The notes: generated by a model from the letters alone, not told the origin. 64,000 nucleotides of DNA from Candidatus Zixiibacteriota bacterium (GCA_049694315.1 JBAVQU010000015.1:53712-117711), one strand, 5' to 3'. Shown: positions 43,516 to 61,555, counted from the stretch's first letter. Numbers and translations: made by a program.

Positions 43516-44727
43516 TCAGTGTGAGAGGCAGCAGCGATGGTGTCTGTGGTGCCGGTGGACACGGAAGGAATGAACGCGGCGAAACCCGTAGTGTCCGCTT
43601 GACCGGAATCCGAAATGATCTCGACGTCGGTGGAAATGTTGTCCCGGCCGAGACGGTCTGACGCGACCAAGCCAGGTGTGCTGGGATGACCTTGCTCCTT
43701 CTTGACCCGAGATGTCACCGTGACCGGGGAGTTGGGAATACCGCTTCGGCTTGGCCTTAAGCTCAACACAACCACTACCCAGCGCACCTACATCGGTGCC
43801 TCCTTGACCGGCACCCAGACAAGGCGATGACGGATTGAGGCGGTAGTCATCGTTTTCCGGGTCACAGAAAATCGGGTCTGTTGACATATTACTTTCCCCG
43901 GCAGAACATCCATTGCAGTTGGTTACATTCCCCCACACGTCGTTATGAGAAAACTCGGTCAGTGTGCCGCTCCGATTCTCAATGCCAACACCACCATCGG
44001 CCATTATGTTATTTTCCACCAATGCTTGCCCGTATAGCTCGACATTGAAACGGGGGTGTGAGCTGAAGGTATTGTAAACGATGCGGTCATGGCCGTGGCT
44101 ATCGATCCCGACCCAGTTTCGCAATATGAGATTCCTCGATACGCTAATTCTGCACGAATTGTCAAAACATAGTATACCGATTGCATGGGTGTTGTCTCTT
44201 ATCTGGTTGTTGGTGATGTTTGCGTAGGAGTTTTCAAGCCACACTACCGCGCCTTCAGAGCCAACATCTCCCCCGTTCCGAGTGAGAATATTGTTTCGAA
44301 TGGTGCACGAGGAATTCTGACATCGCACCGCCCCGTTTGATAGAGTGAAGATCTTGGCACCCTGAATGGTAAAGCCTTGAAGTATCGACGTGGTATCCTC
44401 GCCAGAGTCAAAAGTCACCAGCGGAACTCCGTCAGTAACCTCACTAATAATGGTGTTCCCAGGCTCATCCTCACTCTCAAGTAATATAGCTTTGCCATAG
44501 AAGCTGATGTGTTCACAGTAAGTCCCCGGTGCAACTAGGACGGTGTCGCCGCTTGCCGATGCATTAATTCCTTCTTGGATGGTGGATTGACCGCCCGGAA
44601 CGTGGATTATCCTTGCTTGCGTCTGTTGGAGACGAAAGAAAACGAGAACAACACAAAAAGCTGTGGCTAAGAAACGCACGAAACCTCCCGGGTTTGGAAC
44701 TCCACCACAGAAGACCAAGCCGTACAA
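43516..44727 (-). CDS. Right-handed parallel beta-helix repeat protein (secreted), with a His-rich C-terminal tail
   Basis: N-terminal hydrophobic segment. Repeated NNI/NNQ beta-helix-type repeats (ITNNQIRDN, ENNIMADGGVGIEN). C-terminal HRHHRHHR. Confidence 0.55.
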   Translation of the reverse strand: MYGLVFCGGVPNPGGFVRFLATAFCVVLVFFRLQQTQARIIHVPGGQSTIQEGINASASGDTVLVAPGTYCEHISFYGKAILLESEDEPGNTIISEVTDGVPLVTFDSGEDTTSILQGFTIQGAKIFTLSNGAVRCQNSSCTIRNNILTRNGGDVGSEGAVVWLENSYANITNNQIRDNTHAIGILCFDNSCRISVSRNLILRNWVGIDSHGHDRIVYNTFSSHPRFNVELYGQALVENNIMADGGVGIENRSGTLTEFSHNDVWGNVTNCNGCSAGESNMSTDPIFCDPENDDYRLNPSSPCLGAGQGGTDVGALGSGCVELKAKPKRYSQLPGHGDISGQEGARSSQHTWLGRVRPSRPGQHFHRRRDHFGFRSSGHYGFRRVHSFRVHRHHRHHRCCLSH

Positions 44728-45111: not shown

Positions 45112-45732
45112 TTAATGCAGGATGCCCAGCCAAGCAGTCATAAGAAAGAGTATCCTTCCGATAAGAAGGGACATACGAGACATCACCGTGTAACCGAAGG
45201 ATGCGCCAAAGGAGATCATCAAAAACCAGGTGCCGATTTTCGCTCCTGCACCGAGAGCTCCCTTGTGCTCCTTGGAGAAGAAAAAGTAAATCAGCCCGGT
45301 GATGACCCCCACGATCAGAAGGATGTTGTTCAACGATTCAAGCCACTTCCCCGTCCACAAGGGGAGCAGGTTGGCGTGAATCTGCAGGATCAGATCCCCT
45401 GAGCCATAGCCTACGATGGTAATTCCGGCGTAGATTCCGATTATCAGAGCCATGGACCAGCGGGAGAGCCAGCTGATTCTTGTGAAAAAGCGGCTGAAAA
45501 GCAGAATCCCGAAGATGAAGGGAACCAACAGAATCAGCTTTCCCTGCTGGGTCAGCGGTCTCCACAGATTAGGCAAAAAGACGTTGTAGATTTCCAAAGT
45601 CACGCCGTAACCGGCAGATATGCCTACGAACAGGTGCTCGGCGAATTTATAGAAGGGATTGTCTTTGTATAGAAATGAAAATGCGCACAGGGTCAACAAA
45701 GCGGCCACCCAGATTCCGAGTAGATCCCACAT
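45112..45732 (-). CDS. Cassette A, gene 4: polytopic membrane protein (paralogue family 4)
   Basis: About 6 TM helices. Conserved FSFLYKDNPFYKFAEHLFVGISAGY and LIYFFFSKEHKGA.GGAA.IG.W.LMI.FGA.FGYTVMSRMSLLIGR, shared with 48446..49072 and 52016..52675. Confidence 0.55.
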   Translation of the reverse strand: MWDLLGIWVAALLTLCAFSFLYKDNPFYKFAEHLFVGISAGYGVTLEIYNVFLPNLWRPLTQQGKLILLVPFIFGILLFSRFFTRISWLSRWSMALIIGIYAGITIVGYGSGDLILQIHANLLPLWTGKWLESLNNILLIVGVITGLIYFFFSKEHKGALGAGAKIGTWFLMISFGASFGYTVMSRMSLLIGRILFLMTAWLGILH

Positions 45733-45772
45733 TGAATTTGATCTCTTCTGTTGCCTACGTTTACCTCTCCCC

Positions 45773-45830
45773 TTTAGTCCCCCTCTCCTTGTCAAGGAGA
45801 GGGGGATACAGGGAATGAGGTTTAAACCTT
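45773..45830. repeat. Intergenic nested-palindrome repeat, copy E
   Basis: CCTCTCCCC...GTCCCCCTCTCCTT-gtca-AGGAGAGGGGGA...GGGAATGAGG. Confidence 0.7.
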
Positions 45831-46694
45831 CAATCTCTTTTTCGACTTCTTTAATACAAAGAAGGCGATATTGCCAATCACAATAAACAAAAACACGACT
45901 ATATGCGAAACGGATTGAGCGTCCATTCCCCTTGCGGCGGTTCCTGGTCTTTTCAGCAGCTTCTCATATTCCGCTGCTCCCTTCATTCCTCCCAAAAGCC
46001 CCACTAATTGACCAGACTGAACGTAAGGGTAGAACTCCGGAGCGCTCACCGCCGTGCATCCGGAGCCGAGCTTCACGTGATATCGGGACTGCACCTGAAG
46101 CACCCATTCTTTTGTTCCCGGCAGACCGCCGGAAATGTTCATCAATAACGCTAAGTCGTCAAAGGTGTTTACGCCTTGCATGATCGGCAGGGTTTCAACT
46201 CTGTTTCCCCGATAGTCCGTCGGAAAGGTCTTGGGTATGCTGGTCCCCATGGAGACCATCACCACCTCTCTTCCCTCCTTAAAGCCCAAATTGACGTAAT
46301 CCACACCATATTTCTTGTCCGGGAACTCTTTTAGAACCTCGGTCATGGCACGTTCCACCAGGAGTGTGCCGGTGGCCCACAGCTGGATGGTGATGATCTT
46401 GTCATTATTCTTTAGGAGATGATAAAAGACTGCTATGTTCATCGGATAAAGCTCCGGCATGGAGGCGGGGTCATAATCACATGAGACCAACACTTTGGAG
46501 CCGGGAGGAAGATTCTCTATGGCATCATAGAAGCTCTGCACCGGCGGAGTGATCGAGAAATCGAGATTCACTGGCAGAAGCAGAGAGACGACGATGGACA
46601 ACCCGACAAAGACGAATATAATCCTGCGATCTAAGCTCTCCAGTTTTTCCAGTAGCTTTTTCATGATATAGACCGTCCGCAGTCCGCGGTCCAC
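45822..46694 (-). CDS. Cassette A, gene 3: bitopic membrane protein with a central soluble domain (paralogue family 3)
   Basis: N- and C-terminal TM helices. Conserved ...DYDPASMPEL.PM......YGVDYVNLG...LPIMQGV.N.DD....PY.QS.QLVGLLGGMKGAAEYE shared with 49099..49926 and 52691..53587. Confidence 0.55.
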   Translation of the reverse strand: MDRGLRTVYIMKKLLEKLESLDRRIIFVFVGLSIVVSLLLPVNLDFSITPPVQSFYDAIENLPPGSKVLVSCDYDPASMPELYPMNIAVFYHLLKNNDKIITIQLWATGTLLVERAMTEVLKEFPDKKYGVDYVNLGFKEGREVVMVSMGTSIPKTFPTDYRGNRVETLPIMQGVNTFDDLALLMNISGGLPGTKEWVLQVQSRYHVKLGSGCTAVSAPEFYPYVQSGQLVGLLGGMKGAAEYEKLLKRPGTAARGMDAQSVSHIVVFLFIVIGNIAFFVLKKSKKRLKV

Positions 46695-46865
46695 AGTCCG
46701 CCGCTTTTAACCCTAACCTTCACCACTGTTCGCCTAAAGGCGAACACTCCGGCTTTTTCTTGACCCATGACCCTATTTTTCGCTCCACCGTACGCAGTTC
46801 ACTGTCCATAGCAACAGCACTTAATCTCGAAACCCAGTTCTCAGTTTTCAAATCTCAATCTTGGT

Positions 46866-47489
46866 CTACTCACCTCCTAAGTACGTTCTTTCCAATCCGA
46901 CCAGAACCTTGAGCGCGGTGGAGATCGCTCCCAGTGCCGCTCCGATCATTATGGCCCTTTTGCCTGCCAACTGGGGAACGTTCATGATCCATTCGGTGAA
47001 GCCGGGAAAACCGCTCCACAGTTTTTCACCCGCCGGCACCCTTCCGATCATCACCAAGATAGCCGTGACCGCCAGAAGCGATGCCTGGAACGTCCTCACC
47101 CGGAAAGCACGAAATGCAGCTGAGGCGATGAAGAAAGCCAAAAGCGCGAACATGGTGGACTGCAGAGGAGAATAAGCATTGTTGTACATCCAGAAGAAGG
47201 TAGTTCCCTCCCCAATCCCTCCGAAGAAAAGCCCCACTATGATCATGAAAAACAGACCCAGCACCAAAACAATCTTGTAGAGCCAATCTCTCCCTTTCCT
47301 TTGGATCACGTGATAGTTGACCCTCACGATATTGGCGATACCCAAAACGTAGGCAAAGGTCATGACGATGATGGCCCACTGCCGAAAGTTCTCGAAGATC
47401 GGTCGGACACTCTGATGCGGGATGAAATACTCGAGAATAAAAGACAAACCCGCCAGAAAGCAGATTACTATGGGTATCTCACGTCGCAT
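46866..47489 (-). CDS. Cassette A, gene 2: polytopic membrane protein (paralogue family 2)
   Basis: About 6 TM helices. Conserved MRREIP... and ..STMFALLAFFIASAAFRAFRVR......LKV.LG.ER.Y.GGE shared with 50008..50625 and 53616..54257. Confidence 0.55.
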   Translation of the reverse strand: MRREIPIVICFLAGLSFILEYFIPHQSVRPIFENFRQWAIIVMTFAYVLGIANIVRVNYHVIQRKGRDWLYKIVLVLGLFFMIIVGLFFGGIGEGTTFFWMYNNAYSPLQSTMFALLAFFIASAAFRAFRVRTFQASLLAVTAILVMIGRVPAGEKLWSGFPGFTEWIMNVPQLAGKRAIMIGAALGAISTALKVLVGLERTYLGGE

Positions 47490-47514
47490 AATACGCTTAC
47501 CATAGAAAAGTTGA

Positions 47515-48426
47515 TCACTCTATGTAGAACCAGCTTACAAAATGAGTTATTCCTGCTGTCTCTAGAATCGCTCCCAATGCTAAGATTATCATGATGACCG
47601 CCTTGGCTAAGTCGGAGCCTTTCAGGCTGCCCAGAAGCTTAGGCTCTTTGGAAAGATAGGCACTGGTGGCAAAAAGCTCCTCGCCGATGATGGTATAATC
47701 ACAGGCTACCACAAAGAAGGGCAGTTGGTGTATGTTGGCCGTGCCGGCCACCTGTATGGCGCCGGTGGAAAGCCCGGTCTCCGCCATCAACAGCGACTCG
47801 GCGTAAAATGAGCCGAACATCAGATTGGCAGCGGGCTGCTCTCTGAGCATTATTCCGTTCACTCCGGCGGCATAGGCAAACTGTTCGGAAGAGATAAAAC
47901 GGATGTTGTCCCGGTTATATGCATCCGGTTTGCCGGCTGCGGCATATCCTTCTTTTACTCTCTCCTCCGCTATGGGAACCACAAATGGCATGCATATGGG
48001 AACGTACAATGGTGTTTCGTAGATCGCCACCATCTTGGCCACGTTCCCCAAGATGATCATGGAAGCCACCGTCTGGATGTTGTCCACGTCCTCAATTCCG
48101 GAGATATAGAGCACCGGCTTGCCCATCTCCGTCGCTCTCCCTACCGCCTCCTCGATGGCGTCCAACCCGGCGATTCTTCGGATGAACAGGCTTTTGCCTA
48201 CCTTGGCCCGCTCGATGAAGACGACTATCGCGATGAAGAAGAGAATCAGAAACACCAGCATGTTCGCCCGGTGAGGATTAAACCAGGTGTGGGATAAGTC
48301 CTCCTGGGCATAGGAGAGGGAGGTGAAAAAAAGAAGGAATGAAACAGAAAAAAGCAGCCGCTTCGCGAGAGTGGAGGATTTCATCTGCCAACCAGTGATA
48401 AGAACCCTTATTATGTTCAGCGTCAC
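47515..48426 (-). CDS. Cassette A, gene 1: membrane protein (paralogue family 1, short form without the N-terminal beta-sandwich domain)
   Basis: Signal/TM, then RIAGLDAIEEAVGRATEMGKPVLYI...PDAYNRDNI...FAYAAGVNGIMLR...YAESLLMAETG...LPFFVVACDYTIIGEELFATSAYL, conserved in 50641..51888 and 54271..55521. Confidence 0.55.
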   Translation of the reverse strand: MTLNIIRVLITGWQMKSSTLAKRLLFSVSFLLFFTSLSYAQEDLSHTWFNPHRANMLVFLILFFIAIVVFIERAKVGKSLFIRRIAGLDAIEEAVGRATEMGKPVLYISGIEDVDNIQTVASMIILGNVAKMVAIYETPLYVPICMPFVVPIAEERVKEGYAAAGKPDAYNRDNIRFISSEQFAYAAGVNGIMLREQPAANLMFGSFYAESLLMAETGLSTGAIQVAGTANIHQLPFFVVACDYTIIGEELFATSAYLSKEPKLLGSLKGSDLAKAVIMIILALGAILETAGITHFVSWFYIE

Positions 48427-48445
48427 GGCGCCCTAAGTACGACGT

Positions 48446-49072
48446 TTAAAAGCCAAACAAGTGCTGAAAATAATCCTTGAGGAACGTGAGCCTTTCTATC
48501 AGAAGAGAAACCCGGCCCATCACCGTCATGCCGAAACCCGCGCCAAAGCCTATCATTATAGTCCAAATCCCGATTCTGGCCGCTCCCCCGAAAACGCCGA
48601 TATGCTCCTTGGAGAAGAAGAAATAGATCAAGGCGCACAGGACTCCGAGAGCCACCAAAAGACTGTTAAAAAGCGCGAAACTGGCGAAACCCGCTGGCTG
48701 CATGGTGGCGTACAGAGGCACCAAAATCATAGCCTGCATGGTCACAGGAATCGCCACCCCCATCCCGATTCCCATGTAAGCCGCAATGGGATAACGCGAA
48801 ACCCAGGACCATTTTCTGGAAAATCTGGTCCACATCATGAACCCCAGAATCGTGGGCACCAGATAAGAGAACTGGTGTTCGTGAATCACCGGCTGCCAGA
48901 CTTTGGGTATGAATGATGTGTAATAGAGGAGGATTGCAAAATAGCCGGCCGAGACTCCGACCACCAGGTGTTCTGCGAATTTGTAAAAAGGGTTGTCTTT
49001 GTACAAGATGGAGAATATGCTTAATGTCAAAAACGCCGCCAGACCGTTCCAGAGTATCGAACCCAAATCCAT
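48446..49072 (-). CDS. Cassette B, gene 4 (family 4 paralogue)
   Basis: See 45112..45732. Has SIFSILYKDNPFYKFAEHLVVGVSAGY...LIYFFFSKEHIGVFGGAARIGIW. Confidence 0.55.
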   Translation of the reverse strand: MDLGSILWNGLAAFLTLSIFSILYKDNPFYKFAEHLVVGVSAGYFAILLYYTSFIPKVWQPVIHEHQFSYLVPTILGFMMWTRFSRKWSWVSRYPIAAYMGIGMGVAIPVTMQAMILVPLYATMQPAGFASFALFNSLLVALGVLCALIYFFFSKEHIGVFGGAARIGIWTIMIGFGAGFGMTVMGRVSLLIERLTFLKDYFQHLFGF

Positions 49073-49098
49073 TTCACTTCCTCCGTTTCTGCGTTCCT

Positions 49099-49926
49099 TT
49101 ATATCTTCTGTTTCTTCTTTGACATGAAGAATCCCACATTCCCCACTATGATAAACAGAATCACCACCGCGTGGGTGATGGTCTGCACTTTCATCCCCTG
49201 GCTGGCGGTCCTCTCTTTGGCGTTGGCTAAAGTCTCATACTTGGCTGCCCCTTCCAGCCCTCCCATCAGGCCGAAGATCTGCTTGGATTGAACGTATGGG
49301 AAATAGTCCGCCGCCATCACTCCGGTTACTCCCAGAGCCACGGGGAGTTTATAACGACCGTTGCCGTCGGCTATCCAGGCGTCTGCCACCCACCCGGCCT
49401 CAAAGGCAATCACCGCCTTCATGTCATCGTAGTTGCGCACCCCTTGCATTATGGGCATGGAATCTACGGGGGTTCCGTAATAATCCATGGGAAAGGATAT
49501 CCGGAAATTCTGCCCCATGGACAAAATCACCAGACCAGGATAAGGCTTAAATCCCAAATAAACGTAGTCCACTCCGTTCTTCTTGTTAAACTCCTTGGAT
49601 ATTTTGGCTACTAATTGCTCCGCCATGCCCGGCGCGTTCTGAGACAGAGTAACAAAAAACAGCCTTATTCCTCTGGCGAAACACTGTCGGCTGATGGTCA
49701 ACGCCATGGGGTGAAGCTCAGCCATGGCTTGAGGATCATAATCTATGGCCAAGAGAAGTCGATCCCCCGGTTTCAGACTCTCTATGAAATCGTAGACGCT
49801 CTTCACCTCCGGAGTCACGTATACCGGAACCTGAAAAGGGATGAAAAGAGGAATGGCCACTGCCAGAGCCATGGTCAGATAGACTACCCTGCGGTCTATG
49901 GTCATCAGTTTTTCATAGAAACCCAT
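49099..49926 (-). CDS. Cassette B, gene 3 (family 3 paralogue)
   Basis: Paralogue of 45822..46694. Confidence 0.55.
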   Translation of the reverse strand: MGFYEKLMTIDRRVVYLTMALAVAIPLFIPFQVPVYVTPEVKSVYDFIESLKPGDRLLLAIDYDPQAMAELHPMALTISRQCFARGIRLFFVTLSQNAPGMAEQLVAKISKEFNKKNGVDYVYLGFKPYPGLVILSMGQNFRISFPMDYYGTPVDSMPIMQGVRNYDDMKAVIAFEAGWVADAWIADGNGRYKLPVALGVTGVMAADYFPYVQSKQIFGLMGGLEGAAKYETLANAKERTASQGMKVQTITHAVVILFIIVGNVGFFMSKKKQKI

Positions 49927-50007
49927 CTTCTTCTCCTCACTTTCGGCATGCTGAATCCGTTAAGTCAGCGAAAACACACATCATCACCATGCGCGGCTTG
50001 ACCGGAT

Positions 50008-50625
50008 TTAATCCTTGCCCATATATGATCTTTCTATTCCTAACACCACCTTCAAGGCTGTGGCTATTCCGCCCAACCCCACTCCCATAGCGATGGCTCT
50101 TTTTGCCGCCATGTTGGGGACGGTCAAAATCCACCGGGAAGCAGCCTGCATCGGGAGCGAGAGGAAACCCAAAGGAATCAACCTAAGCATGATGATCACA
50201 GCGGTAAGCAGAAGGATCGTCGCTATCAGCGTTCGCGCCCTAAAAGCCCGGTAGGCGGCAGAGGCAATGTAGAATGCTAAGAGGGCAAACATGGAAGCCT
50301 GAATCGGAGTGTAGATATACCAGAACAGCTTCATGAAGGGCTTCCCTTCCTCTATTCCCCAGATCAGCCCCAGAATGATCATGGCGAAAAGCCCGGCCAA
50401 AAGAATGAGATTATATCCCCAACTGGGGGCTTTAGTCTGGATTTTCGACACGCTGACTCTGAAGAGACTCCACAGTGCTAAACCCATGGCGAAAACGCCG
50501 ACGATTATGATCCAATCCAAAGCATACTCATAAATCCGCTCCGAAATCTCCAGCGGAACAAAATACTGAACTGCCATGAACACTCCACCCAAGAGAACGA
50601 TAAGCAAAGGAATCTGCCAGCGCAT
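50008..50625 (-). CDS. Cassette B, gene 2 (family 2 paralogue)
   Basis: Paralogue of 46866..47489. Confidence 0.55.
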   Translation of the reverse strand: MRWQIPLLIVLLGGVFMAVQYFVPLEISERIYEYALDWIIIVGVFAMGLALWSLFRVSVSKIQTKAPSWGYNLILLAGLFAMIILGLIWGIEEGKPFMKLFWYIYTPIQASMFALLAFYIASAAYRAFRARTLIATILLLTAVIIMLRLIPLGFLSLPMQAASRWILTVPNMAAKRAIAMGVGLGGIATALKVVLGIERSYMGKD

Positions 50626-50640
50626 GTATTTGCTCCTGAT

Positions 50641-51888
50641 CTATAGTTTGATGCGGAAAAGATTCACAATGAAGTCCAGATGGAAACTCGCGGCCAATGT
50701 CCCTAGAATCAAGGAGATCATGATCAAAATCTTCCCCCAATCCTGGGCTTTGATGGCGCCCAAAAGCAGAGGTTCTTTCCCCAAATATGCGGACGCGGCG
50801 TAAAGCTCCTCACCTATCAAGGTGTAATCCGTAGCCGCCACGAAGAAGGGAATTTGAGCTACTTGATCGGTTCCCGAAATCTGAATGGATCCGGCGACGT
50901 TTCCGGTCTCGGCCAAAAGCAGGGATTCGGCATAGAAGACCCCCATATAGATATTGGTGGCCGTTTTTTGTCGGAGCATCAACCCATTGACCGCAGAGAC
51001 GTAGGCAAATTGCATGGAGGTTAGATAAAAGACCGAATCCTCCTTGTAGGCATCGGGTCGGCCAGCCTCGAAATATCCCGTTCTGACCGCTTCCTGTGCC
51101 ACGGTCAACACCACTGGGTCCGACACCGGAACCAAAAGAGGAGTCTGATATTCCGCGGTTTTCTTGGCCACCCGACTTAAGATGGTCAGCGAGGCGATAG
51201 TCCCCAGATCTCCAGCGCTCCCCATACCCAGGATGTAGAGGATGGGTCTTCCCATCTCAGTCGCCCGGCCGATGGCATCGTCTATCGCATCTATTCCGGC
51301 GATGGGTCGAACATAGAGTTCTTTCCCCTTTTTGGCGTGCCGGATGAAGACCAGCACAAAGAGGGTGAATAAGAAGGTGGATATGAAAATAGAGGTCTTG
51401 CCGGTATGAAACCACTGGCCAAATGCATAAGCTGGGGCGGAGACATTCGATTCGGATAAAGAGATTGCACTTTTTGCTTTGATCTTGTAATAGAAGTTTT
51501 TGTGGCTGGGGAAATAGTTTTTGTCCTCCTTTTCCCTTGCACCTCGATCTAAGTACTGGTTGGTTCCCGCCGCTACCACCCCGCGAGATACAAAACCGGT
51601 ATCGGGATTGTCTGACCTCAGTATTTCATAAGAGAGTACATTATTCTTTCCTGCTCCATCATCCGCCGACAGTTTCCACCTGACCATGATAGCATGCCCA
51701 TTATCATTGGGAGCATCTTTTGCCACCACATCCATGGCAGGAGCAGGAGCTTGAGCAAAAGAATCGGGTATAGCTATAGCGTGTCCTAGTTCTTGAGCCG
51801 ATGAGATTTGCAACCCAATAAGGAAAAAGGAAAACAAAAGAAGGAAAATCAGAGAGATCTTGTTTCGAAAAACAAATCTGTCTTTCAT
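50641..51888 (-). CDS. Cassette B, gene 1 (family 1 paralogue, long form with an N-terminal FN3/Ig-like domain)
   Basis: Signal peptide, then a beta-sandwich-like segment (IMVRWKLSADDGAGKNNVLSYEILRSDNPDTGF...YYKIKAKS), then the conserved family-1 core. Confidence 0.55.
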   Translation of the reverse strand: MKDRFVFRNKISLIFLLLFSFFLIGLQISSAQELGHAIAIPDSFAQAPAPAMDVVAKDAPNDNGHAIMVRWKLSADDGAGKNNVLSYEILRSDNPDTGFVSRGVVAAGTNQYLDRGAREKEDKNYFPSHKNFYYKIKAKSAISLSESNVSAPAYAFGQWFHTGKTSIFISTFLFTLFVLVFIRHAKKGKELYVRPIAGIDAIDDAIGRATEMGRPILYILGMGSAGDLGTIASLTILSRVAKKTAEYQTPLLVPVSDPVVLTVAQEAVRTGYFEAGRPDAYKEDSVFYLTSMQFAYVSAVNGLMLRQKTATNIYMGVFYAESLLLAETGNVAGSIQISGTDQVAQIPFFVAATDYTLIGEELYAASAYLGKEPLLLGAIKAQDWGKILIMISLILGTLAASFHLDFIVNLFRIKL

Positions 51889-52015
51889 CGTGACTCCTCG
51901 AAAAAGCTGTCCAAGTATCTGTCAACGGATTAAGCGCCCAGACGGGCTCGGAAGAGTTCCCGGACGGACGGATGGAACGGATGTTATTCGCTTGATCCGT
52001 CACATCCGTTGACCG

Positions 52016-52675
52016 CTATCTTATCAACCTTAGCCATTCCCTGAAAAGATAGTCCATCCTCCCGATCAAAAGGGACATACGGCTCATCACCGTGTAGCCG
52101 AACATCGCTCCGAAGTTGATCATCAAAAACCAGATTCCCACTCGAGCTGCACCTCCAAAAGCGCCTTTGTGCTCTTTGGAGAAGAAAAAGTAAATCAAGC
52201 CGCAGAACGTCCCCACCACGATTATTATGTTGCCGACAGAAGCATGCACGTTCCCGCCTACTATCAAAGGCTTGATGGCTCCCACCACCTGTTTGATTCC
52301 GTTGCTTTCCAGATAGCGAGTAAACTGCAGGCCGGCGGTGGTTCCCACTATGAAAGCCAATGACCATCGAGACAACCACCCTATTTTGGGCACAAGCCTT
52401 AACAACATTAAAACTCCGAATAGGCCCCCCAAGAGGTATATCCAGTGATAGTCTATTCTTCCTTTGGTCGAAAGCTCGCTGTAAGCCAAAGCTAAGTTGT
52501 CCCAAAACTTTGGCAAAAAATACTGCCAGAAAGTGACCACAAACCAATAGCCGGCGGAAATTCCCACAAACAGAGCCTCGGAGAATTTGTAAAAGGGATT
52601 GTCTTTATACAGAAAGCTGAAGATGCCCAAAGTCAGTAGAGCACCAATCCACACTCCGATAACTTCACCACTCAT
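52016..52675 (-). CDS. Cassette C, gene 4 (family 4 paralogue)
   Basis: Paralogue of 45112..45732. Confidence 0.55.
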   Translation of the reverse strand: MSGEVIGVWIGALLTLGIFSFLYKDNPFYKFSEALFVGISAGYWFVVTFWQYFLPKFWDNLALAYSELSTKGRIDYHWIYLLGGLFGVLMLLRLVPKIGWLSRWSLAFIVGTTAGLQFTRYLESNGIKQVVGAIKPLIVGGNVHASVGNIIIVVGTFCGLIYFFFSKEHKGAFGGAARVGIWFLMINFGAMFGYTVMSRMSLLIGRMDYLFREWLRLIR

Positions 52676-52690
52676 TTTTCCTGTCTCCAG

Positions 52691-53587
52691 CTAGGCAGTC
52701 TTCTTTTTTCTCAGTGAGAAGAAAGCTACATTGCCTATGATGATGAAAACGCAGATCACCGCGTGCGATACGGCTTGGGAGAACATGTATCCCACGGCTT
52801 TATCCGGTTTACCAATAGCCATCTCATATTCGGCTCCACCCTTCATTCCCCCCAAAACCCCAACCAGTTGTTTGGACTGAATGTAGGGATACATAGAGGG
52901 GGCTTGAACCGCCGTGTTGCCCGCGGCTAATTTGACATGAAACACGTCCACCGCATACTGCACCCATTCCATGGTTCCGGGATAGCCGGCTGATAGATTG
53001 AATATCAAATCAATGTTGTCGTAGTTTTTGACCCCCTGCATCAGAGGAAGCTCAGCCAGTGGTGTGCCGTGGCTATCTTTGGGATAGGACTCCTCAAAAC
53101 TGTGTCCCATACGATCGATCACCACCTCGTTTCCGGCGGTGTATCCCAAATTGACGTAATCTATGCCATATTGCAAGTTTTTTGCCTTTATCTCCGGATC
53201 TCTAAGGACTTTCTCCAAAGATATGTTTGCCTGGAGCGGACCCTGTGGCCATAAGCCCATGATGATTACCTTCAGACCCTTCCGGAAACATTGCCTGAGG
53301 AACGCATCCGCCATGGGCTGGAGTTCGGGCATTGAGGCGGGATCAAAATCAAGGGAGACCAGCACCTTGGACCCGGCCGGAAGGTTGTCGATAGAGTCGT
53401 ATACCGCCTGGACCACCGGGGTGACCGGTATAGGCATGGATACGGTGAAAAACAAAGGGACGACGATAGCCGCGGTGACGAAAAGGAATATTATCCTTCG
53501 ATCAATGCTTAACAGCTTTTCCCAGAAGGACTTTCTTACTTGGTTTGACGTTTCATTCATCTTTAGATGATTCCCAATATGTGCCAA
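52691..53587 (-). CDS. Cassette C, gene 3 (family 3 paralogue)
   Basis: Paralogue of 45822..46694. Confidence 0.55.
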   Translation of the reverse strand: MAHIGNHLKMNETSNQVRKSFWEKLLSIDRRIIFLFVTAAIVVPLFFTVSMPIPVTPVVQAVYDSIDNLPAGSKVLVSLDFDPASMPELQPMADAFLRQCFRKGLKVIIMGLWPQGPLQANISLEKVLRDPEIKAKNLQYGIDYVNLGYTAGNEVVIDRMGHSFEESYPKDSHGTPLAELPLMQGVKNYDNIDLIFNLSAGYPGTMEWVQYAVDVFHVKLAAGNTAVQAPSMYPYIQSKQLVGVLGGMKGGAEYEMAIGKPDKAVGYMFSQAVSHAVICVFIIIGNVAFFSLRKKKTA

Positions 53588-53615
53588 GATTAGCTTTTGT
53601 CTGCCTACTGTCTAC

Positions 53616-54257
53616 TTACTCTCCTCCGGTATAAGTTCTCTCCAGACCGAGAATCACTCTTAATGCCGAAGAGACGACCCCCAAAGCGATACCTATCATA
53701 ATGGCCTTTTGTCCGGCGGTTTGAGGATAGTCCATGATCCAGTCTGCGGCATTTCCCAATCCATTTCCCAGCCAGGAGGAAATCCAGTATCCGATGGGAA
53801 CCCGGCCCAACATCAATATAAAAGCGGCACTCAAAAGCATGGTGGCTTCCACATTCCTTGCCCGGAAAGCCCGATATGATGCCGAAGCCACAAAGAAAGC
53901 CAAAAGAGCAAACATAGTGGCAGAAAGAGGATAATATATATGCGTGTAAAGATAATAGAAAGCCGTCCCCGGATCTTGAAAAGACCTCCCCTTAGAGAAA
54001 AACATCCCGATTATGGTCATCACCAGAAATCCAATAATCACCACCACGCCGAAGGGCCAACCCTTCTGCTTTTTATAGACCTTGTCTCCGTTAACCACAA
54101 TCAGGTTCAAAATCCCGAGATAGATGGCAAATGCAGCTATGATGAAAAACCAGTCTTCAAACAGATCCTTTAGAGCGTTGAGAGGGGGGATAAAGTGGGT
54201 AATTATCATGGTAAGCCCCACCAGGGCGGTCAAAATCAAAGGGACTTCTCTTCGCAT
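53616..54257 (-). CDS. Cassette C, gene 2 (family 2 paralogue)
   Basis: Paralogue of 46866..47489. Confidence 0.55.
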   Translation of the reverse strand: MRREVPLILTALVGLTMIITHFIPPLNALKDLFEDWFFIIAAFAIYLGILNLIVVNGDKVYKKQKGWPFGVVVIIGFLVMTIIGMFFSKGRSFQDPGTAFYYLYTHIYYPLSATMFALLAFFVASASYRAFRARNVEATMLLSAAFILMLGRVPIGYWISSWLGNGLGNAADWIMDYPQTAGQKAIMIGIALGVVSSALRVILGLERTYTGGE

Positions 54258-54270
54258 ATTCTGTCTCCGG

Positions 54271-55521
54271 TCATATTCCTTTGAAAAGCTCCCTTACGTC
54301 GGGAAGGTTCAATCCCAAAACCGAATTGAGCGTAAGCAAGATTGCGCCAACCAAGATCGCCAAAAGAAAGATAAACTTCCCTACGTCTTGTCCTTTTAGG
54401 CTTCCCAAAAGCTTAGGATCCTTGGAAAGATAGGCGGAAGCAGCAAAAAGCTCCTCTCCGATCAATGTATAATCGCAGGCGGCAACGAAAAAGGGAAGCT
54501 GGGTGACCATGGCAGTCCCGGCGATTTGGATGGCTCCTACGGAGTTGGCGGTTTCAGCCAAGATTAGGGACTCGGCGTAAAACTGTCCTTGTAGAAATAC
54601 CGCCGCCGGTCTTTCTCTTAAGAAAAGCCCATCTAAAGCCGCAGCGTAAGCAAACTGATCATTGGTGACGTAATAAACCATGTTATCATTGTAAGCATCC
54701 GGTCTTCCGGCGTTAAGGTATGCTTCTTTCACTACTTCTCTACAGGTGACCATCACCAATGACGTACAGACCGGAACTTCCAGCTTCGCCTCATACTCCG
54801 CCGCCAGCTTCGCCACCCTTCCTAAGATGGTAACACCAGCGATGGTCTGTATGCTGTCCATATCCATGATGCCAGGCACGAAGATTATTTTTCTGCCCAT
54901 CTCGGTCGCCCGTCCCACCGCATCATCCACTGCCTCCAGACCAGCGATCTTGCGGATAAAAACTCCCTTGCCCGATTTGGCTTTCTCTATGAAGTAAAAA
55001 ATGGCAAGCCCGATCACCAAGGAGAGGATAAAAAGGCTTAATCGGCTGAAATCGAACCACTGTCTCTTGGCAAAGGCGGGAGCGCTGGAGAGTGACTCGG
55101 ATGCGCCAGTTGGGGAAATCGCTCTGATCTTGTAAAAATATAGCACCTTGTTCTTAGCCGCGTTATCCGAGAAGGAAGTGGCGCCTGGTGCCGCGTTTCC
55201 TATGACTTCGTAGCCCTCATCTTTTCTGGTGGATCGGAGGATTTCGTACTTGGTAACGTTCTTCGTCCCCCCTCCGTCGTCGGCTGATTTTCCCCAACTC
55301 ACGGAGATCGCTCCGCCCTTGTCGTTGGGAATGTCCTTGGCCACCACATTGGTGGCCGGAGCAGGCGGAGCCTGAATCACCGCCGGGCTTTCAGCTTGAG
55401 CCACAGGATTTTGTTCTGCCCCTGAGGCAAGGGGGACAAAGAGAAAGAGGATGCTGGGGAAAAGGACCCACAGGAGCAATCTGGCTTTTAATCGAGCTGA
55501 ACAGCGATGCGTTCTGATCAC
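54271..55521 (-). CDS. Cassette C, gene 1 (family 1 paralogue, long form with an FN3/Ig-like domain)
   Basis: ISVSWGKSADDGGGTKNVTKYEILRSTRKDEGYEV...FYKIRAIS, then the family-1 core (FIRKIAGLEAVDDAVGRATEMGRKIIFV...). Confidence 0.55.
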   Translation of the reverse strand: MIRTHRCSARLKARLLLWVLFPSILFLFVPLASGAEQNPVAQAESPAVIQAPPAPATNVVAKDIPNDKGGAISVSWGKSADDGGGTKNVTKYEILRSTRKDEGYEVIGNAAPGATSFSDNAAKNKVLYFYKIRAISPTGASESLSSAPAFAKRQWFDFSRLSLFILSLVIGLAIFYFIEKAKSGKGVFIRKIAGLEAVDDAVGRATEMGRKIIFVPGIMDMDSIQTIAGVTILGRVAKLAAEYEAKLEVPVCTSLVMVTCREVVKEAYLNAGRPDAYNDNMVYYVTNDQFAYAAALDGLFLRERPAAVFLQGQFYAESLILAETANSVGAIQIAGTAMVTQLPFFVAACDYTLIGEELFAASAYLSKDPKLLGSLKGQDVGKFIFLLAILVGAILLTLNSVLGLNLPDVRELFKGI

Positions 55522-55925
55522 ACTTTTTCCCAGAAAAGAAAAACCTTCTTAAGGACTCTTCGTCCCAGAAGGTCTTGTTACGGCAGATCCTGTTCAGGTC
55601 TGGAGAGCAGACGGTTGATCAACGCCGATGCTTTCTTGATCCTCACTTGTTCCCACCGAAGGCAGGAGACGATCTCCAGGGTCATGTGGTTCCCAGAAAC
55701 AGATTCCAACCTCATACTTCGTTCATAACCACTCCTCAGCTTTTGTCAATTTACCAAACAGCCTCAGTTAAGTCAAGCGAAAACTATGTCGACCAGCCAT
55801 ATTCTTTGAAGAATTCTCGGGTCTGCGGGAGTTCGCATAAATCTGCGAACCTGCGGGTTAGGGATTCGCGCGGCGTGAGGGAATTTGGAGGAGTGAGGGC
55901 GATTCATGAATCGCCCCTACTTGAG

Positions 55926-57053
55926 CTATTCTTCCAGCATCTCCACGTTTGCTCGTGGAATCATGGCTCTGGTTCCGTCTTCGAATTCCACTTCCAGCAC
56001 TCGTGCGGATGACTCCGATTCGAGTTTTTGCAGGGCTGAAGGCAAGTCGCTCACCTTTCCCAGCCGCCCGAAATAAGGCTGGCGGATCACTCGCACCGGA
56101 TAACCGATAGTGATCCCGATGTTTTCCAATTCCTCTTTGTCTTCTCTCTTGTTCACGTCACCAGCGAACGGTATCACGACTTCCGGGCGAATCACTCCGG
56201 CACGAATCTGAGTGGCGCCGTTGAAGCAGGCCATCTCACCTTCTTTTGATTTCAAAAGCGCGAAGGTCTTCTCTGCCATGTTTATTTGTCCAAAGCCTTC
56301 GGTAACCACCAGGGTTATTCCCAACTCCTCCGATCCGGTGATCGCCACCCCCAGATCGTATCCCAAGAAATCTCTTAGGTCCTTGTCGCCGAATCCGCCC
56401 ACCACAATTCCTCTGGCTCCCAGGCTTATAGCTTTTTTCATCGCATCTGCGGTGACCAAGCTTCCCCCTACGATCACCTTGTCTCTGCAGTCCTTCTCGA
56501 TCAGACTGTCGGTCAAGACTTCGGCATTGTCCTTTACCACGACTTTGATCTCCCCGTGCGTCTCGCCACCGATGCCGAAGATCCCCTGAATAAAAGACCC
56601 CCAGGTGGAGACGGCTACTCCCTCTTTCTCGTATACCTCTACTACTTCGCCTTCGAGATATGCTTTGACCTCCACTGGGATCGGATTTCCTCTTATCAAC
56701 ACCTGCCCGGTGACCGAGGAGATGCTTTCCACCGTTCCCTCAGCCTTGGATTTGCACTCTGAGCTGAAGAGTCCAAAGAAGCTTTTGCTGCTGGCGACGA
56801 CTTCTCCTTCTTTGACCCTCTCTCCTTCCTTTCTAAGCATGTGGTGCATTATGTCTTCAGGTGGAATACCCAAGACGTTGGCCACGTTGAACGGCTCCAC
56901 GTTCCCCGGAAGCAAAGTTCGAGCCACCACCGTATCCGGCTTCACCTTGTCTCCCACCTTCACCAAAACCTCCCCTTTTAGCGGAAGTATCCTCTTTTTG
57001 GTCACCCGTATCTTTTCCGTTACCTTCAATCCGGGCGTATATGCATGACCCAT
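55926..57053 (-). CDS. Hypothetical protein (375 aa), co-directional with the GlmL/MutL-like gene and the cassettes
   Basis: ORF with good coding composition. No family recognised. Confidence 0.5.
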   Translation of the reverse strand: MGHAYTPGLKVTEKIRVTKKRILPLKGEVLVKVGDKVKPDTVVARTLLPGNVEPFNVANVLGIPPEDIMHHMLRKEGERVKEGEVVASSKSFFGLFSSECKSKAEGTVESISSVTGQVLIRGNPIPVEVKAYLEGEVVEVYEKEGVAVSTWGSFIQGIFGIGGETHGEIKVVVKDNAEVLTDSLIEKDCRDKVIVGGSLVTADAMKKAISLGARGIVVGGFGDKDLRDFLGYDLGVAITGSEELGITLVVTEGFGQINMAEKTFALLKSKEGEMACFNGATQIRAGVIRPEVVIPFAGDVNKREDKEELENIGITIGYPVRVIRQPYFGRLGKVSDLPSALQKLESESSARVLEVEFEDGTRAMIPRANVEMLEE

Positions 57054-57172: not shown

Positions 57173-59017
57173 TTAGAGTCTCTCCAGACTCTCCTTGGTA
57201 TAAATATCCAGGGTCAACATCCATTCCTTCAGCTTTGCCACTCTGACTTTGGGGTCGGTGGGCAGGTTAAAAGGTCTTCCCCGGCAATCCATGATTATTC
57301 CGGTCACCCCTCCATGAATGGTGGTTTCCACTTTGTTCCCCTTTCCTCCCCCCACATCAAAACCACGATGGGGGTTTAATTCTGCTTTGCAGGTCAAGGG
57401 AATCCCGGTCTTTTCATCCAATCCCAGAGGAATCCTTCTCATCTCTCCATATTTTACCGAGCCCTCCAGGGTCTTGCCGTCAGGCATGGTAAACTTGTAA
57501 CTAAGGATATCTTTCTCATCTTTGGATTCGCCCACCGGAGCGATACAGGTGCCCAGATGGATTAGACAGTCCTTATCAAACACCTGGGTGGCTGCTTTGG
57601 GATGGACAGTAGAGAGAACCCCCAGTTGAGGCATCATGAAGATGGAATCGACTGCCAGACGGGTGATCGCTTCGGGCATGAAACCGTCTATCAGCATCAA
57701 AGCCGCCTGCTGTCTTCGGGGAGCATGAGAGAGCACCCCTCCGGAACCGATGAGCATGTTCAAAGTCATCATATTAACCAGAGTCAACCCGCCCATGGAC
57801 TGATCAAACGCATCGGCAATGGTTCTCTGCTGCTGGATGCCTTTCAAAGCAGTGGCGAATGACTTATGCTGGATGAACGCCAATCTCAACGCCTCTTTGG
57901 CTATGGCCTGTTCGAAGATCAGCTCTTCCATCATCTGGGGAATGGTAGTCGGACGGATCATCTTGTTTTTCACTCTATTCCGCAAGTCTCTTTCGTCCAT
58001 ATGAAAGGGAACCCATCTCATCACGTTATCCAAGCCCGCTTCCGCGAAAACGTTGGAGACCGAATAGCTCATGCCTAAATTAGCACTCACCGTGCGGTTG
58101 AAGACCCCCTGAAATACCGAGAAGATATCCGTAGTGGCCCCGCCGATGTCCACGCCCACCGCCTCGATCCCTTCCTGATCGGCAATGGTTTTGATGATAA
58201 GTCCCACTGCGCCAGGTGTGGGCATGATGGGAGCATCCGTCCAGCTCATCAGTTTTTTGTAACCGGGAGCCTGGGCCATCACGTGCTCCATGAACAGATC
58301 GTGGATCTTCTCCCGTGCGGGAAGGAGATTTTCCCGCTCCAACACCGGTCTTAGATTATCCACAATGTCCAGCGATACCTTATCTTTGAGCGTCTCCTTG
58401 ACGGCATCTCGGGCGTTTACGTTCCCCGCATAGATAACGGGAAGCTTATAGCCAATTCCCAAGCGGGGTTTTGGATCCGCCGCCGAGATCAACTCGGCAA
58501 TCTCCACCACATGGGTAGTGGTCCCTCCGTCGATCCCGCCGGAGAGCAGAATCATGTCCGGTCGCAGATGCCTGATCCTCTGAATCTGCTGATGCGGAAG
58601 TCTTTTGTCGTTGGAAGCGATGACGTCCATCACGATGGCCCCTGCTCCCAAGGCGGCACGCTCAGCAGATTCTGCGGTCATGCTTCTGACCACGCCTGCC
58701 ACCATCATCTGCAAACCGCCTCCGGCAGAGGAGGTGGAGATGTAAATGTCCGTTCCCACGTTGCCTTTGGCCGGCGAAATGATTCTTCCGTTTTCATCCA
58801 ACAGCTTCTTTCCGGTTAGTTCCTCCACCTCACCCACGGCATTCAAGACTCCCATGGTGACGTCCTCAAAAGGGGCCTCCACCGTAGTAGGCGCCTCGCC
58901 CCGGACGATCAGTCGATATTCCTCTCCTCGCTTCTCAATCAAAATCGCTTTAGTGGTCGTGCTACCGCAATCGGTAGCTAAAATCACGCTGATGTCTTCG
59001 GGCTTTAAATCTTTCAT
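57173..59017 (-). CDS. GlmL/MutL-family actin-fold (ASKHA) protein with a ~200-aa C-terminal extension
   Basis: N-terminal ILATDCGSTTTKAILIE, phosphate-1-like. A second ATPase-fold segment LLSGGIDGGTTTHVVEIAE. The overall pattern resembles the glutamate mutase accessory protein MutL family. This is a family-level call only. Confidence 0.45.
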   Translation of the reverse strand: MKDLKPEDISVILATDCGSTTTKAILIEKRGEEYRLIVRGEAPTTVEAPFEDVTMGVLNAVGEVEELTGKKLLDENGRIISPAKGNVGTDIYISTSSAGGGLQMMVAGVVRSMTAESAERAALGAGAIVMDVIASNDKRLPHQQIQRIRHLRPDMILLSGGIDGGTTTHVVEIAELISAADPKPRLGIGYKLPVIYAGNVNARDAVKETLKDKVSLDIVDNLRPVLERENLLPAREKIHDLFMEHVMAQAPGYKKLMSWTDAPIMPTPGAVGLIIKTIADQEGIEAVGVDIGGATTDIFSVFQGVFNRTVSANLGMSYSVSNVFAEAGLDNVMRWVPFHMDERDLRNRVKNKMIRPTTIPQMMEELIFEQAIAKEALRLAFIQHKSFATALKGIQQQRTIADAFDQSMGGLTLVNMMTLNMLIGSGGVLSHAPRRQQAALMLIDGFMPEAITRLAVDSIFMMPQLGVLSTVHPKAATQVFDKDCLIHLGTCIAPVGESKDEKDILSYKFTMPDGKTLEGSVKYGEMRRIPLGLDEKTGIPLTCKAELNPHRGFDVGGGKGNKVETTIHGGVTGIIMDCRGRPFNLPTDPKVRVAKLKEWMLTLDIYTKESLERL

Positions 59018-59101: not shown

Positions 59102-60749
<1,648 letters not shown>

Positions 60750-60830
60750 GGCTTTCCTCAGAACAGGACTTGCCGTGCACGTCGAATATGGTCGAAGACC
60801 TATTCGACATAAGGGTGGTTAAATTGCCTC

Positions 60831-61466
60831 TTACTCCTTCAGCGCCTGGGCGATGGCCTCCCCAAACTCCCGGGCGACCGGCGGACCGCTGGCCGTAATG
60901 ATTTTGCCGTCTCTTTGAACACCCTGACCGGTATATTGGGCCCCTTTGTCTTTGAGCTTTTGAGCCTCCGACTCAGATACGGTGGCCTTCTTTCCCGCCA
61001 GGATTCCGGCATTGGCACAGGTGACCGGAGCGATGCAGATGGCGCCCACTATTTTGTTTTGCTTGACCGCTTCGATCAACAGCAAGTGAACCGAAGGGTC
61101 GTTCCAATATCGGCTTGCCCCCGTGCCGCCTACTAAGATGATGGCATCCCACTGGTCCGGCTTTATGTCACTTATGAGCAGATCAGGCTTCACCTGGACG
61201 TTCAGCATTCCCTTGGCCGTCTCCAAGGATACGCTGGCGACCTTAACCTCGGCTCCTTTTCCGGTCAAGACGTCTTGAGGCTCAATCAATTCCTCGTCGC
61301 GGAAACCTTCCGGCGCGATGATCATCACCACTTTCTTTCCGAGTAGCTCCTTCTTTGAAACAATCTCTTCTTTGGCCAGCGGAGCTTCCTCTTTTTCACT
61401 CCTGCATCCGCCTAACAGCAAGCTCATCCATACCATCAAGCTAATGGTCAGAAGAACTCTCTTCAT
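60831..61466 (-). CDS. DJ-1/PfpI-family protein, lipoprotein
   Basis: Lipobox LLGGC. Then KKVVMIIAPEGFRDEEL...AIILVGGTGA...IVGAICIAPV (the nucleophile-elbow Cys). Confidence 0.7.
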   Translation of the reverse strand: MKRVLLTISLMVWMSLLLGGCRSEKEEAPLAKEEIVSKKELLGKKVVMIIAPEGFRDEELIEPQDVLTGKGAEVKVASVSLETAKGMLNVQVKPDLLISDIKPDQWDAIILVGGTGASRYWNDPSVHLLLIEAVKQNKIVGAICIAPVTCANAGILAGKKATVSESEAQKLKDKGAQYTGQGVQRDGKIITASGPPVAREFGEAIAQALKE

Positions 61467-61555
61467 CTTTTCCTCCTGCTTTGCTCCCCGCGCCAGCAAA
61501 TGACCTGACACTTTGGGCATAGCCCGTCCGGTACATGCTTTGAATTTCAGCGGTT

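Follow-up and report, generated by a model that had tools for sequence, protein, structure and literature searches.

A tandemly repeated four-gene membrane cassette in Candidatus Zixiibacteriota and the actin-fold ATPase genes that accompany it

Positions 45112-55521 of a 64,000-nt stretch from a Candidatus Zixiibacteriota metagenome-assembled genome (MAG; the whole 64,000-nt stretch is referred to as the window) hold three tandem copies of a four-gene cassette, whose products belong to four protein families here named F1 to F4. F1-F4 are, with high probability, the subunits of a hetero-oligomeric complex of the inner membrane, which forms part of a conserved module with an actin-fold (ASKHA) ATPase of the MutL/GlmL family, the cytoplasmic protein P375 and the small membrane proteins S136 and S150. 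The F1-F4 complex is well supported because the genes keep a fixed order, because the cassette is duplicated as a whole block and because F3 and F4 are found fused; judged from sequence, the association is very probably obligate.

The region contains 12 intact open reading frames (ORFs), all on the minus strand, arranged as three cassettes that each read F1-F2-F3-F4 in the direction of transcription, in the order c (55521 to 52016), b (51888 to 48446) and a (48426 to 45112):
54271-55521, minus strand: F1c, 416 aa; DUF6754 protein with an FN3 domain; PF20539 E 3.5e-122, 407 bits; FN3 match to titin E 3.9e-8; identical to NCBI P0001
53616-54257, minus strand: F2c, 213 aa; ~6 predicted transmembrane (TM) helices, both termini cytoplasmic; no known family
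52691-53587, minus strand: F3c, 298 aa (289 aa from the NCBI start); TM helix, ~204-aa periplasmic Rossmann-like domain, TM helix (predicted)
52016-52675, minus strand: F4c, 219 aa; ~6 predicted TM helices; invariant YKDNPFYKF and FFFSKEH; no known family
50641-51888, minus strand: F1b, 415 aa; DUF6754 and FN3, b-type; PF20539 E 8.4e-115, 383 bits
50008-50625, minus strand: F2b, 205 aa
49099-49926, minus strand: F3b, 275 aa
48446-49072, minus strand: F4b, 208 aa
47515-48426, minus strand: F1a, 303 aa; DUF6754 without FN3, a-type; PF20539 E 9.1e-115, 383 bits
46866-47489, minus strand: F2a, 207 aa
45822-46694, minus strand: F3a, 290 aa from GTG; an alternative ATG at 46664 gives 280 aa
45112-45795, minus strand: F4a, 227 aa from TTG; an ATG at 45732 (206 aa) aligns with the paralogues

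An initial annotation of this stretch had proposed the same three cassettes and four families, and all 12 ORFs are present within the outer limits it gave. The motifs it quoted (GRATEMG, FS.LYKDNPFYKF, LIYFFFSKEH and LG.ER.Y.GGE) were all found and the topologies predicted here fit its description, with the correction that the F1 core, which it wrote as GRATEMG(K/R)P, does not end in proline in F1c (GRATEMGRK). Its account of the spacing, 12-30 nt between genes with one 10-nt overlap, has to be replaced: measured with the longest-ORF starts, the gaps are 13, 28, 15, 127, 15, 81, 26, 19, 25, 171 and 26 nt, and no overlap was found. A promoter and terminator scan gave a result no higher than the shuffled expectation. 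The window lies on a 283-kb contig, and in NCBI its proteins are named "hypothetical", "fibronectin type III domain-containing" or "glutamate mutase L".

Within each family, the window paralogues are 37-55% identical over their full length (BLASTP, E 1e-47 to 1e-121), a resemblance well above anything chance would give, while no similarity between families was detected by BLASTP, nor, for F2 against F4 and F1 against F3, by profile-profile comparison with hhalign. An internal duplication of the cassette, with F1 related to F3 and F2 to F4, was considered and set aside for lack of profile similarity (hhalign probability 0.3% for F2 against F4). The paralogue typing and the ancient clades of the cassette tree described below bear out the earlier view that the triplication is old. 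It is not an assembly artefact either. The layout MutL-P375-c-b-a recurs in independent assemblies (loci are numbered with the prefix L), namely L001 (a 520-kb contig from the Joint Genome Institute, JGI), L002 (Logan) and L004-L006, where each paralogue has its own one-to-one orthologue, and base composition is even across the region, findings that speak against a chimeric or collapsed metagenomic assembly.

The distribution scan covered one genome per GTDB species and gave at least 599 pattern matches, 583 of them confirmed; 79 loci were fetched. Hidden Markov models (HMMs) built from the window's own cassette proteins recover F1-F2-F3-F4 in order at essentially every one of these loci, and the order is constant throughout the 79, in at least ten phylum-level lineages. 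Carriers are Zixibacteria, Ignavibacteria, WOR-3, Stahlbacteria, Coatesbacteria, Aegiribacteria/Fermentibacteria, Poribacteria, Planctomycetota (Gimesia, Isosphaeraceae, Phycisphaerae), Acidobacteriota and MAGs labelled Deltaproteobacteria. Untruncated loci hold one cassette (36 loci), two (six loci) or three (eight loci), and in L012 a fourth cassette begins. Clustered at 50% identity, F4 by itself amounts to 2,662 clusters with E<=1e-3 and to 1,913 with E<=1e-10.

When the genes of these loci were typed against the window paralogues, a b-type F1 always occurred with b-type F2, F3 and F4, so that blocks are inherited whole and are not shuffled. Furthermore, two F4-family representatives, P0457 and P0470, are F3-F4 fusion proteins in which the topology is preserved by an extra linker TM helix, which provides a Rosetta-stone argument for physical association. 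Other candidate fusions were not used as evidence or were discarded: the direct F3-F4 fusion of L048 is topologically awkward, long F1, F3 and F4 ORFs in high-GC contigs are ORF-calling artefacts, and the F1 ORF of L024 spans an assembly gap. The idea of an obligate hetero-oligomeric complex, put forward at the outset, is very probably right, given the order in 79 loci, the en-bloc duplication and the fusions; the complex belongs to a larger module.

A neighbour-joining tree of 106 concatenated cassettes separates into four clades, a, b, c and c'. Clade c consists of the first cassettes of Zixibacteria and Ignavibacteria and clade c' of the second cassettes of the same groups, the latter lying near the single copies of Planctomycetota and Acidobacteriota. 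The window's second cassette and the third cassettes of other loci form clade b, near Poribacteria, and clade a is a long branch formed by the window's third cassette, close to which the tree places the single-copy cassettes of WOR-3, Fermentibacteria and Coatesbacteria. Complete cassettes of type a, as assigned by best match, are confined to close relatives of the window (L001, L004-L006). Taken together, the clades and the paralogue typing indicate that the copies arose by duplications or transfers that predate the split of the major lineages. The "three rounds of duplication" of the first description were therefore old, as it held, but the wording is imprecise, as the copies are separate ancient clades of different ages. 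At L001:17740-19148, and at the same position in L006, a fifth gene is found in the a-type cassette, between F1a and F2a; it is F2-like but divergent (228 aa) and is not in the window.

Topology was called from hydropathy and charge bias. F1 is predicted to consist of a cleavable-looking signal peptide, a periplasmic FN3 domain, a TM helix, a cytoplasmic alpha/beta domain of ~195 aa and a second TM helix; F1a differs from F1b and F1c in having no FN3 domain. F2 is predicted to have six TM helices with both termini in the cytoplasm, F3 an N-in TM helix followed by a ~204-aa periplasmic domain and another TM helix, and F4 about six TM helices with the N-terminus outside in its apparent orientation. 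Of the four "membrane subunits" first described, F2 and F4 are indeed polytopic, but F1 and F3 are bitopic proteins with large soluble domains, cytoplasmic in F1 and periplasmic in F3, and so are not simply membrane subunits. In an AlphaFold model, the periplasmic domain of F3 adopts a generic Rossmann-like fold. As a speculation, F1+F2 and F3+F4 could be viewed as two bitopic-plus-polytopic pairs of opposite orientation, with the F1 domain and F2 N-terminus inside and the F3 domain and F4 N-terminus outside.

F1a, F1b and F1c match the full 257-position model of PF20539 (DUF6754) with E 1e-115 to 1e-122, all above its gathering score of 27 bits. For F2, F3 and F4, of which 34-45 diverse members were each scanned singly against Pfam and NCBIfam, there was no Pfam, NCBIfam, PADLOC or PDB match, and a profile search found no relative among solved structures. 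Permease models were tested specifically for F2, and because TMD0_ABC matched only 8 of 39 members (best E 8e-5) and ABC2_membrane_3 only two of 39 (E>0.3), F2 cannot be placed in a permease family. The initial annotation could assign none of the four families to a characterised transporter or secretion family, and this holds, but F1 does have a family, Pfam DUF6754. In some F4 proteins an anchored domain is added at the N-terminus, or loops are enlarged by helical insertions of 260-350 aa, the additions being helical or FN3-like, and the extra domains of these long forms have no Pfam match. Some F2 homologues (among them L035:14935-16713 and L061:4182-6020) have a large insertion in the predicted periplasmic TM3-TM4 loop, which in L035 and L044 contains FG-GAP/VCBS-like DxDxDG repeats, recognised by eye only, and in L061 (Phycisphaerae) is helical and ~400 aa long.

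Upstream of F1c, on the same strand, lie the other genes of the module:
55522-55925, minus strand: P375-F1c spacer, 404 nt; sequence not conserved; hairpin-plus-T-run elements
55926-57053, minus strand: P375, 375 aa, cytoplasmic; barrel-sandwich-hybrid, alpha/beta and KOW-like domains; 47-80% identical across phyla
57173-59017, minus strand: MutL/GlmL-family ASKHA (actin-fold) ATPase, 614 aa; PF13941 E 2.6e-129; ~130-aa C-terminal extension
61556-61978, minus strand: S136, 140 aa; small membrane-hairpin protein; precedes the MutL-like gene in 17 loci of several phyla
62029-62481, minus strand: S150, 150 aa; two TM helices; precedes S136 in nine loci

The initial annotation had seen neither an ATPase nor a known energy-coupling subunit. 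This is true only within 45112-55521 and fails once the immediate context is taken into account, because the MutL-like ATPase and P375 are directly upstream and syntenic across phyla; moreover, the proton-motive-force motors of the Tol and Ton systems are recurrent neighbours. The MutL-like protein keeps the two ASKHA nucleotide-binding motifs, phosphate-1 (general form DxGxT) as D.GST.TK and phosphate-2 (general form DxGGxTxD) as D[IVL]GG[AG]T[TS]D, in all 23 full-length orthologues. P375 retains its 47-80% identity from Zixibacteria to Planctomycetota and shows numerous motifs of unvarying Gly, Arg, Glu and Asn (the homologues retrievable for structure modelling were 67-98% identical). Its N-terminal domain matches Biotin_lipoyl weakly in 17 of 20 members and RnfC_N with a best E of 1.2e-6, its middle part is an alpha/beta domain with a faint RraA-like resemblance and its C-terminus is KOW-like; neither P375 nor F1 contains an invariant His or Cys.

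Of 80 loci, 33 have MutL-like and/or P375 genes next to cassettes, a count that becomes 22 of 51 when only loci with 5 kb or more of upstream sequence are considered. There is one pair per one to three cassettes, in co-directional or divergent orientation, and the adjacency occurs in at least six phylum-level groups. In ten single-cassette loci (L046, L050, L051, L056, L059, L061, L062, L070, L075 and L079) the distance between P375 and F1 is only -23 to +24 nt. In Zixibacteria 177-404 nt lie between P375 and the first cassette (55522-55925 in the window, L001:9609-10000, L004:1667-1843), and hairpin-plus-T-run elements make the P375-F1c spacer a possible transcription-unit boundary, where a terminator or attenuator may split the ATPase genes from the cassettes.

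In the window, S136 is separated from the MutL-like gene by a block of ~2.5 kb (59102-61520, minus strand), which looks like a lineage-specific insertion because S136 and the MutL-like gene are direct neighbours in relatives, L001 among them. It contains the following:
60831-61520, minus strand: DJ-1/PfpI protein
60006-60749, minus strand: peptidoglycan-binding M15 peptidase
59713-60066, minus strand: DUF433 protein
59102-59716, minus strand: unannotated 204-aa ORF, no hit

In some lineages of Zixibacteria or Ignavibacteria type, a gene of ~250 aa without a Pfam family, not present in the window, lies between the MutL-like gene and P375 at L009:5305-6078 (minus strand), L025:6891-7646 (minus strand) and L084:9218-9973 (plus strand, 251 aa); its product is secreted with a C-terminal anchor in L009 and L025. 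In L050 a different gene, of 240 aa, occupies this position.

In 14 of 80 loci, spread over several lineages, the module is bordered by ExbB/ExbD-family genes of either the TolQRAB or the ExbBD-TonB type, in varied relative positions. In WOR-3/Stahlbacteria, ExbB-ExbD-ExbD-TonB lies downstream of the cassette, as does the Exb/TonB set of Aegiribacteria/Fermentibacteria-type loci, with a TonB-dependent receptor in between in L056, while in Gimesia loci ExbB-ExbD-ExbD is upstream. L009 (Zixibacteria) and L084 (a metagenome contig of the same layout) have a Tol-Pal-type cluster after P375, with MotA_ExbB, ExbD, TonB_2 and TolB domain genes; in L084 tolQ-tolR-tolA-tolB comes directly after the MutL gene, the 251-aa gene and P375, on the same strand, and is followed by a small gene and a YfiO/TPR gene. 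ExbB/ExbD genes also follow P375 in L025 and L043 (Ignavibacteriales MAG). No MotA_ExbB, ExbD, TonB_C or TolB domain occurs in the cassette, P375 or MutL-like proteins themselves, these domains being located in separate neighbouring genes. In WOR-3, five small genes (L023:13162-16004, plus strand) are found between the cassette and ExbB-ExbD-ExbD-TonB, the first encoding DUF4388 and the other four without a family, and these may be lineage-specific components.

Two unrelated polytopic six-TM subunits, soluble alpha/beta domains on opposite membrane faces, varied periplasmic decorations, such as the FN3 domain that F1 usually has and the additions to F2 and F4, and the Tol/Ton neighbours speak of an envelope or transport theme. 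We tentatively suggest, as a possible interpretation, that each cassette supplies one of several interchangeable membrane modules to a machine for transport or translocation across the envelope, which is served by one shared ATPase/adaptor module and cooperates with Tol or Ton. One cassette would give one inner-membrane complex with ~16 TM helices if the stoichiometry is 1:1:1:1 (two in F1, six in F2, two in F3 around its periplasmic domain and about six in F4), and the shared cytoplasmic module would consist of the MutL/GlmL-like ASKHA ATPase and P375, with S136 and S150. The MutL-like protein would bind or hydrolyse ATP, and P375 would pass the effect on to the F1 domain in the cytoplasm, which would drive or gate a conformational change of the transmembrane core made of F2 and F4. 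This may carry a substrate from the cytoplasm or inner membrane to the periplasm, or the other way, and on the periplasmic side the F3 domain and FN3 would handle it, in a process functionally tied to Tol-Pal or TonB and so to the link between inner and outer membrane; the paralogous cassettes (clades a, b, c and c') may differ in substrate or periplasmic partner. In this model we infer that the MutL-like protein and P375 dock on F1, that the process is coupled to ATP and that the activity is transport, and also what the substrate is and which way it moves. The model in its boldest form, a new class of primary-active envelope transporter or translocase in which an actin-fold ATPase acts via P375 to power a 16-TM hetero-tetrameric core together with Tol/Ton motors, with specificity given by the paralogous cassettes and a wide distribution in the Fibrobacteres-Chlorobi-Bacteroidetes (FCB) and Planctomycetes-Verrucomicrobia-Chlamydiae (PVC) groups and Acidobacteriota, is doubtful.

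Several points weigh against the transport interpretation. HMM and fold searches found no module component that resembles a known transporter, secretion or lipid-trafficking family, and the AlphaFold model of F1 is poor (predicted local distance difference test, pLDDT, of 56). We know of no ASKHA ATPase that energises transport, and relatives of GlmL are thought to act as chaperone-like reactivases. MutL-like and P375 genes are not nearby, as far as the flanks go, in 29 of the 51 loci with at least 5 kb upstream. Adjacency to Tol/Ton genes is seen in only 14 of 80 loci, concerns two different systems and could partly reflect inherited synteny. Finally, there is no clue to a substrate, neither a riboswitch nor a consistently linked metabolic gene: Rfam gave nothing at seven distant loci, and its sole match in the window is an unrelated cobalamin riboswitch 30 kb away.

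The main alternative is that the module is an accessory scaffold for envelope maintenance or cell division and not a transporter, its periplasmic domains (FN3, Rossmann-like, propeller or coiled-coil insertions) touching peptidoglycan or the outer membrane while the MutL-like protein and P375 organise or remodel from the cytoplasm, together with Tol-Pal. We consider this somewhat unlikely. It would account for the Tol-Pal-type clusters of L084 and L009, which share the same MutL and P375 genes, and for the ExbB/ExbD genes after P375 in L025 and L043; the periplasmic decorations vary and are of the kind that serves for binding or as a spacer, every listed carrier phylum is a diderm lineage, and the ASKHA fold is common to the cytoskeletal and divisome proteins FtsA, MreB and PilM. 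However, up to three or four paralogous cassettes per genome on one soluble module are more typical of specificity modules, there is no evidence of polymerisation by GlmL-family proteins, and in other phyla the adjoining set is of the TonB type, with the receptor in L056 pointing to uptake. Alternatively, the four membrane subunits could be a stand-alone secondary transporter or channel driven by an ion gradient, with no dedicated ATPase, the MutL-like and P375 genes being mere syntenic neighbours with a separate function. The 29 loci lacking these genes nearby would fit, as would the WOR-3 and Poribacteria loci, where the cassette stands alone, and the long, non-conserved Zixibacteria spacer with its terminator-like hairpins. 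Nevertheless, MutL-like/P375 adjacency that recurs in at least six phylum-level groups, in both orientations and with overlapping genes, is hard to explain other than by functional coupling with the cassette; P375 has no other recognisable role, and F1 has a large and strongly conserved domain in the cytoplasm, which implies a partner there, so that a stand-alone transporter is quite unlikely.

Subunit sizes and gene count resemble those of nqr and rnf operons, and the weak RnfC_N and NQRA_N barrel-sandwich matches of P375 (best member E 1.2e-6) would suit a cofactor-less relative of Rnf/Nqr in which P375 corresponds to RnfC/NqrA, F1 to RnfD/NqrB, F3 to RnfG/NqrC and F2/F4 to RnfA/E or NqrD/E. 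Such a relationship is nonetheless very improbable: hhalign against Escherichia coli RsxA, C, D, G and E gave at most 1%, except for 4.5% over 40 residues between P375 and the barrel-sandwich region of RsxC, F1 has two TM helices where about ten would be expected, and F2 and F4 are unrelated, unlike RnfA/E. In addition, F2c has no cysteine, a [ST]GA[TS] flavinylation motif is not visible on direct reading of the sequence, and there is no equivalent of NqrF or RnfB. We give hardly any credence to a phosphotransferase system (PTS)-like group translocation, an anti-phage defence island or a chimeric or collapsed assembly. The ASKHA fold includes kinases and the barrel-sandwich fold occurs also in EIIA-Glc, but the missing invariant His/Cys in P375 and F1 and hhalign values of at most 1% against PtsI and Crr speak against a PTS. 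Tandem multigene paralogues with a DUF433 gene nearby recall defence islands, yet PADLOC gave no hits among 10 proteins; and although the source is a MAG, the repeated layout, orthology and uniform composition described above contradict an artefact.

Likeness to known systems is partial throughout. DUF6754 is itself an uncharacterised family, and no record links it to F2-F4, to MutL-like/P375 or to Tol/Ton genes. The window's MutL-like protein matches PF13941 end to end and keeps both phosphate motifs, as do GlmL/MutL and the ASKHA reactivases EutA and DdrA, but falls below the NCBIfam cut-offs (NF040745 GlmL, 233 against 475 bits; NF040744 Or-4, 227 against 600; TIGR01319 glmL_fam, 176 against 204), bears the C-terminal extension and has P375 and membrane proteins as conserved partners. 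No B12 mutase gene (glmS/glmE) was found among its Pfam-tested neighbours in the window, and its conserved partners elsewhere are P375, S136 and the cassettes. Group II energy-coupling factor (ECF) transporters, in which one soluble ATPase-containing module serves several membrane modules, offer an analogy of working only for the one to three paralogous cassettes found here, as there is no ABC ATPase and no EcfT or S-component homology and the ATPase has an actin fold. An ATP-binding cassette (ABC) transporter was rejected, with no ABC_tran match in any module protein and no recognised permease family. The resemblance to Rnf/Nqr extends to subunit number and sizes and to the N-terminal domain of P375, whereas the membrane subunits are non-homologous, cofactor motifs are absent and F2 and F4 are not paralogues. 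Tol-Pal and ExbBD-TonB share the diderm envelope and the neighbourhood with the cassette, whose proteins are not homologous to TolQ/R/A or ExbB/D/TonB; relative to Tol/Ton the cassette would be a partner system, not a variant.

Other features of the surroundings are unrelated or of local distribution. The cobalamin riboswitch (RF00174, 13314-13591, minus strand, 85 bits) lies upstream of a BtuB-like TonB-dependent receptor gene (11084-13099, minus strand; PDB BtuB match E 1e-24) in an ordinary B12-uptake locus that is not linked to the cassette. Directly downstream of cassette a, a 403-aa protein with DUF1565 (right-handed beta-helix) is encoded at 43516-44727 (minus strand), a position not conserved in relatives. 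Pyruvate phosphate dikinase is encoded downstream of the cassette block in eight loci (L009:18433-21207, L085:20086-21002 and other Zixibacteria/Ignavibacteria), probably through inherited synteny and not because of a shared function.

No mention of DUF6754, PF13941 or this gene cluster was found in the openly accessible literature that was searched, and no characterised system of transport, secretion, respiration or defence has a counterpart to any component in sequence or, in the case of F3, in fold. On these grounds we regard the module as new as a system, with its function read from context, though a known fold may yet emerge from good models of F1, F2, F4 and P375. The family databases that were searched have no entry for three of the four core families. 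The seven- to eight-gene module extends from Zixibacteria to Planctomycetota and Acidobacteriota, with at least 583 confirmed stretches among species-representative genomes. Should an actin-fold ATPase drive a machine of envelope transport or maintenance, this would be a new energy-coupling principle for bacterial membranes and would make sense of a set of conserved genes now labelled "hypothetical" in numerous uncultured phyla, with the linkage to Tol-Pal as a concrete phenotype to test. Even if the proposed mechanism is wrong, the system is open to experiment, since its genes, topologies, paralogue clades and partners have been defined.

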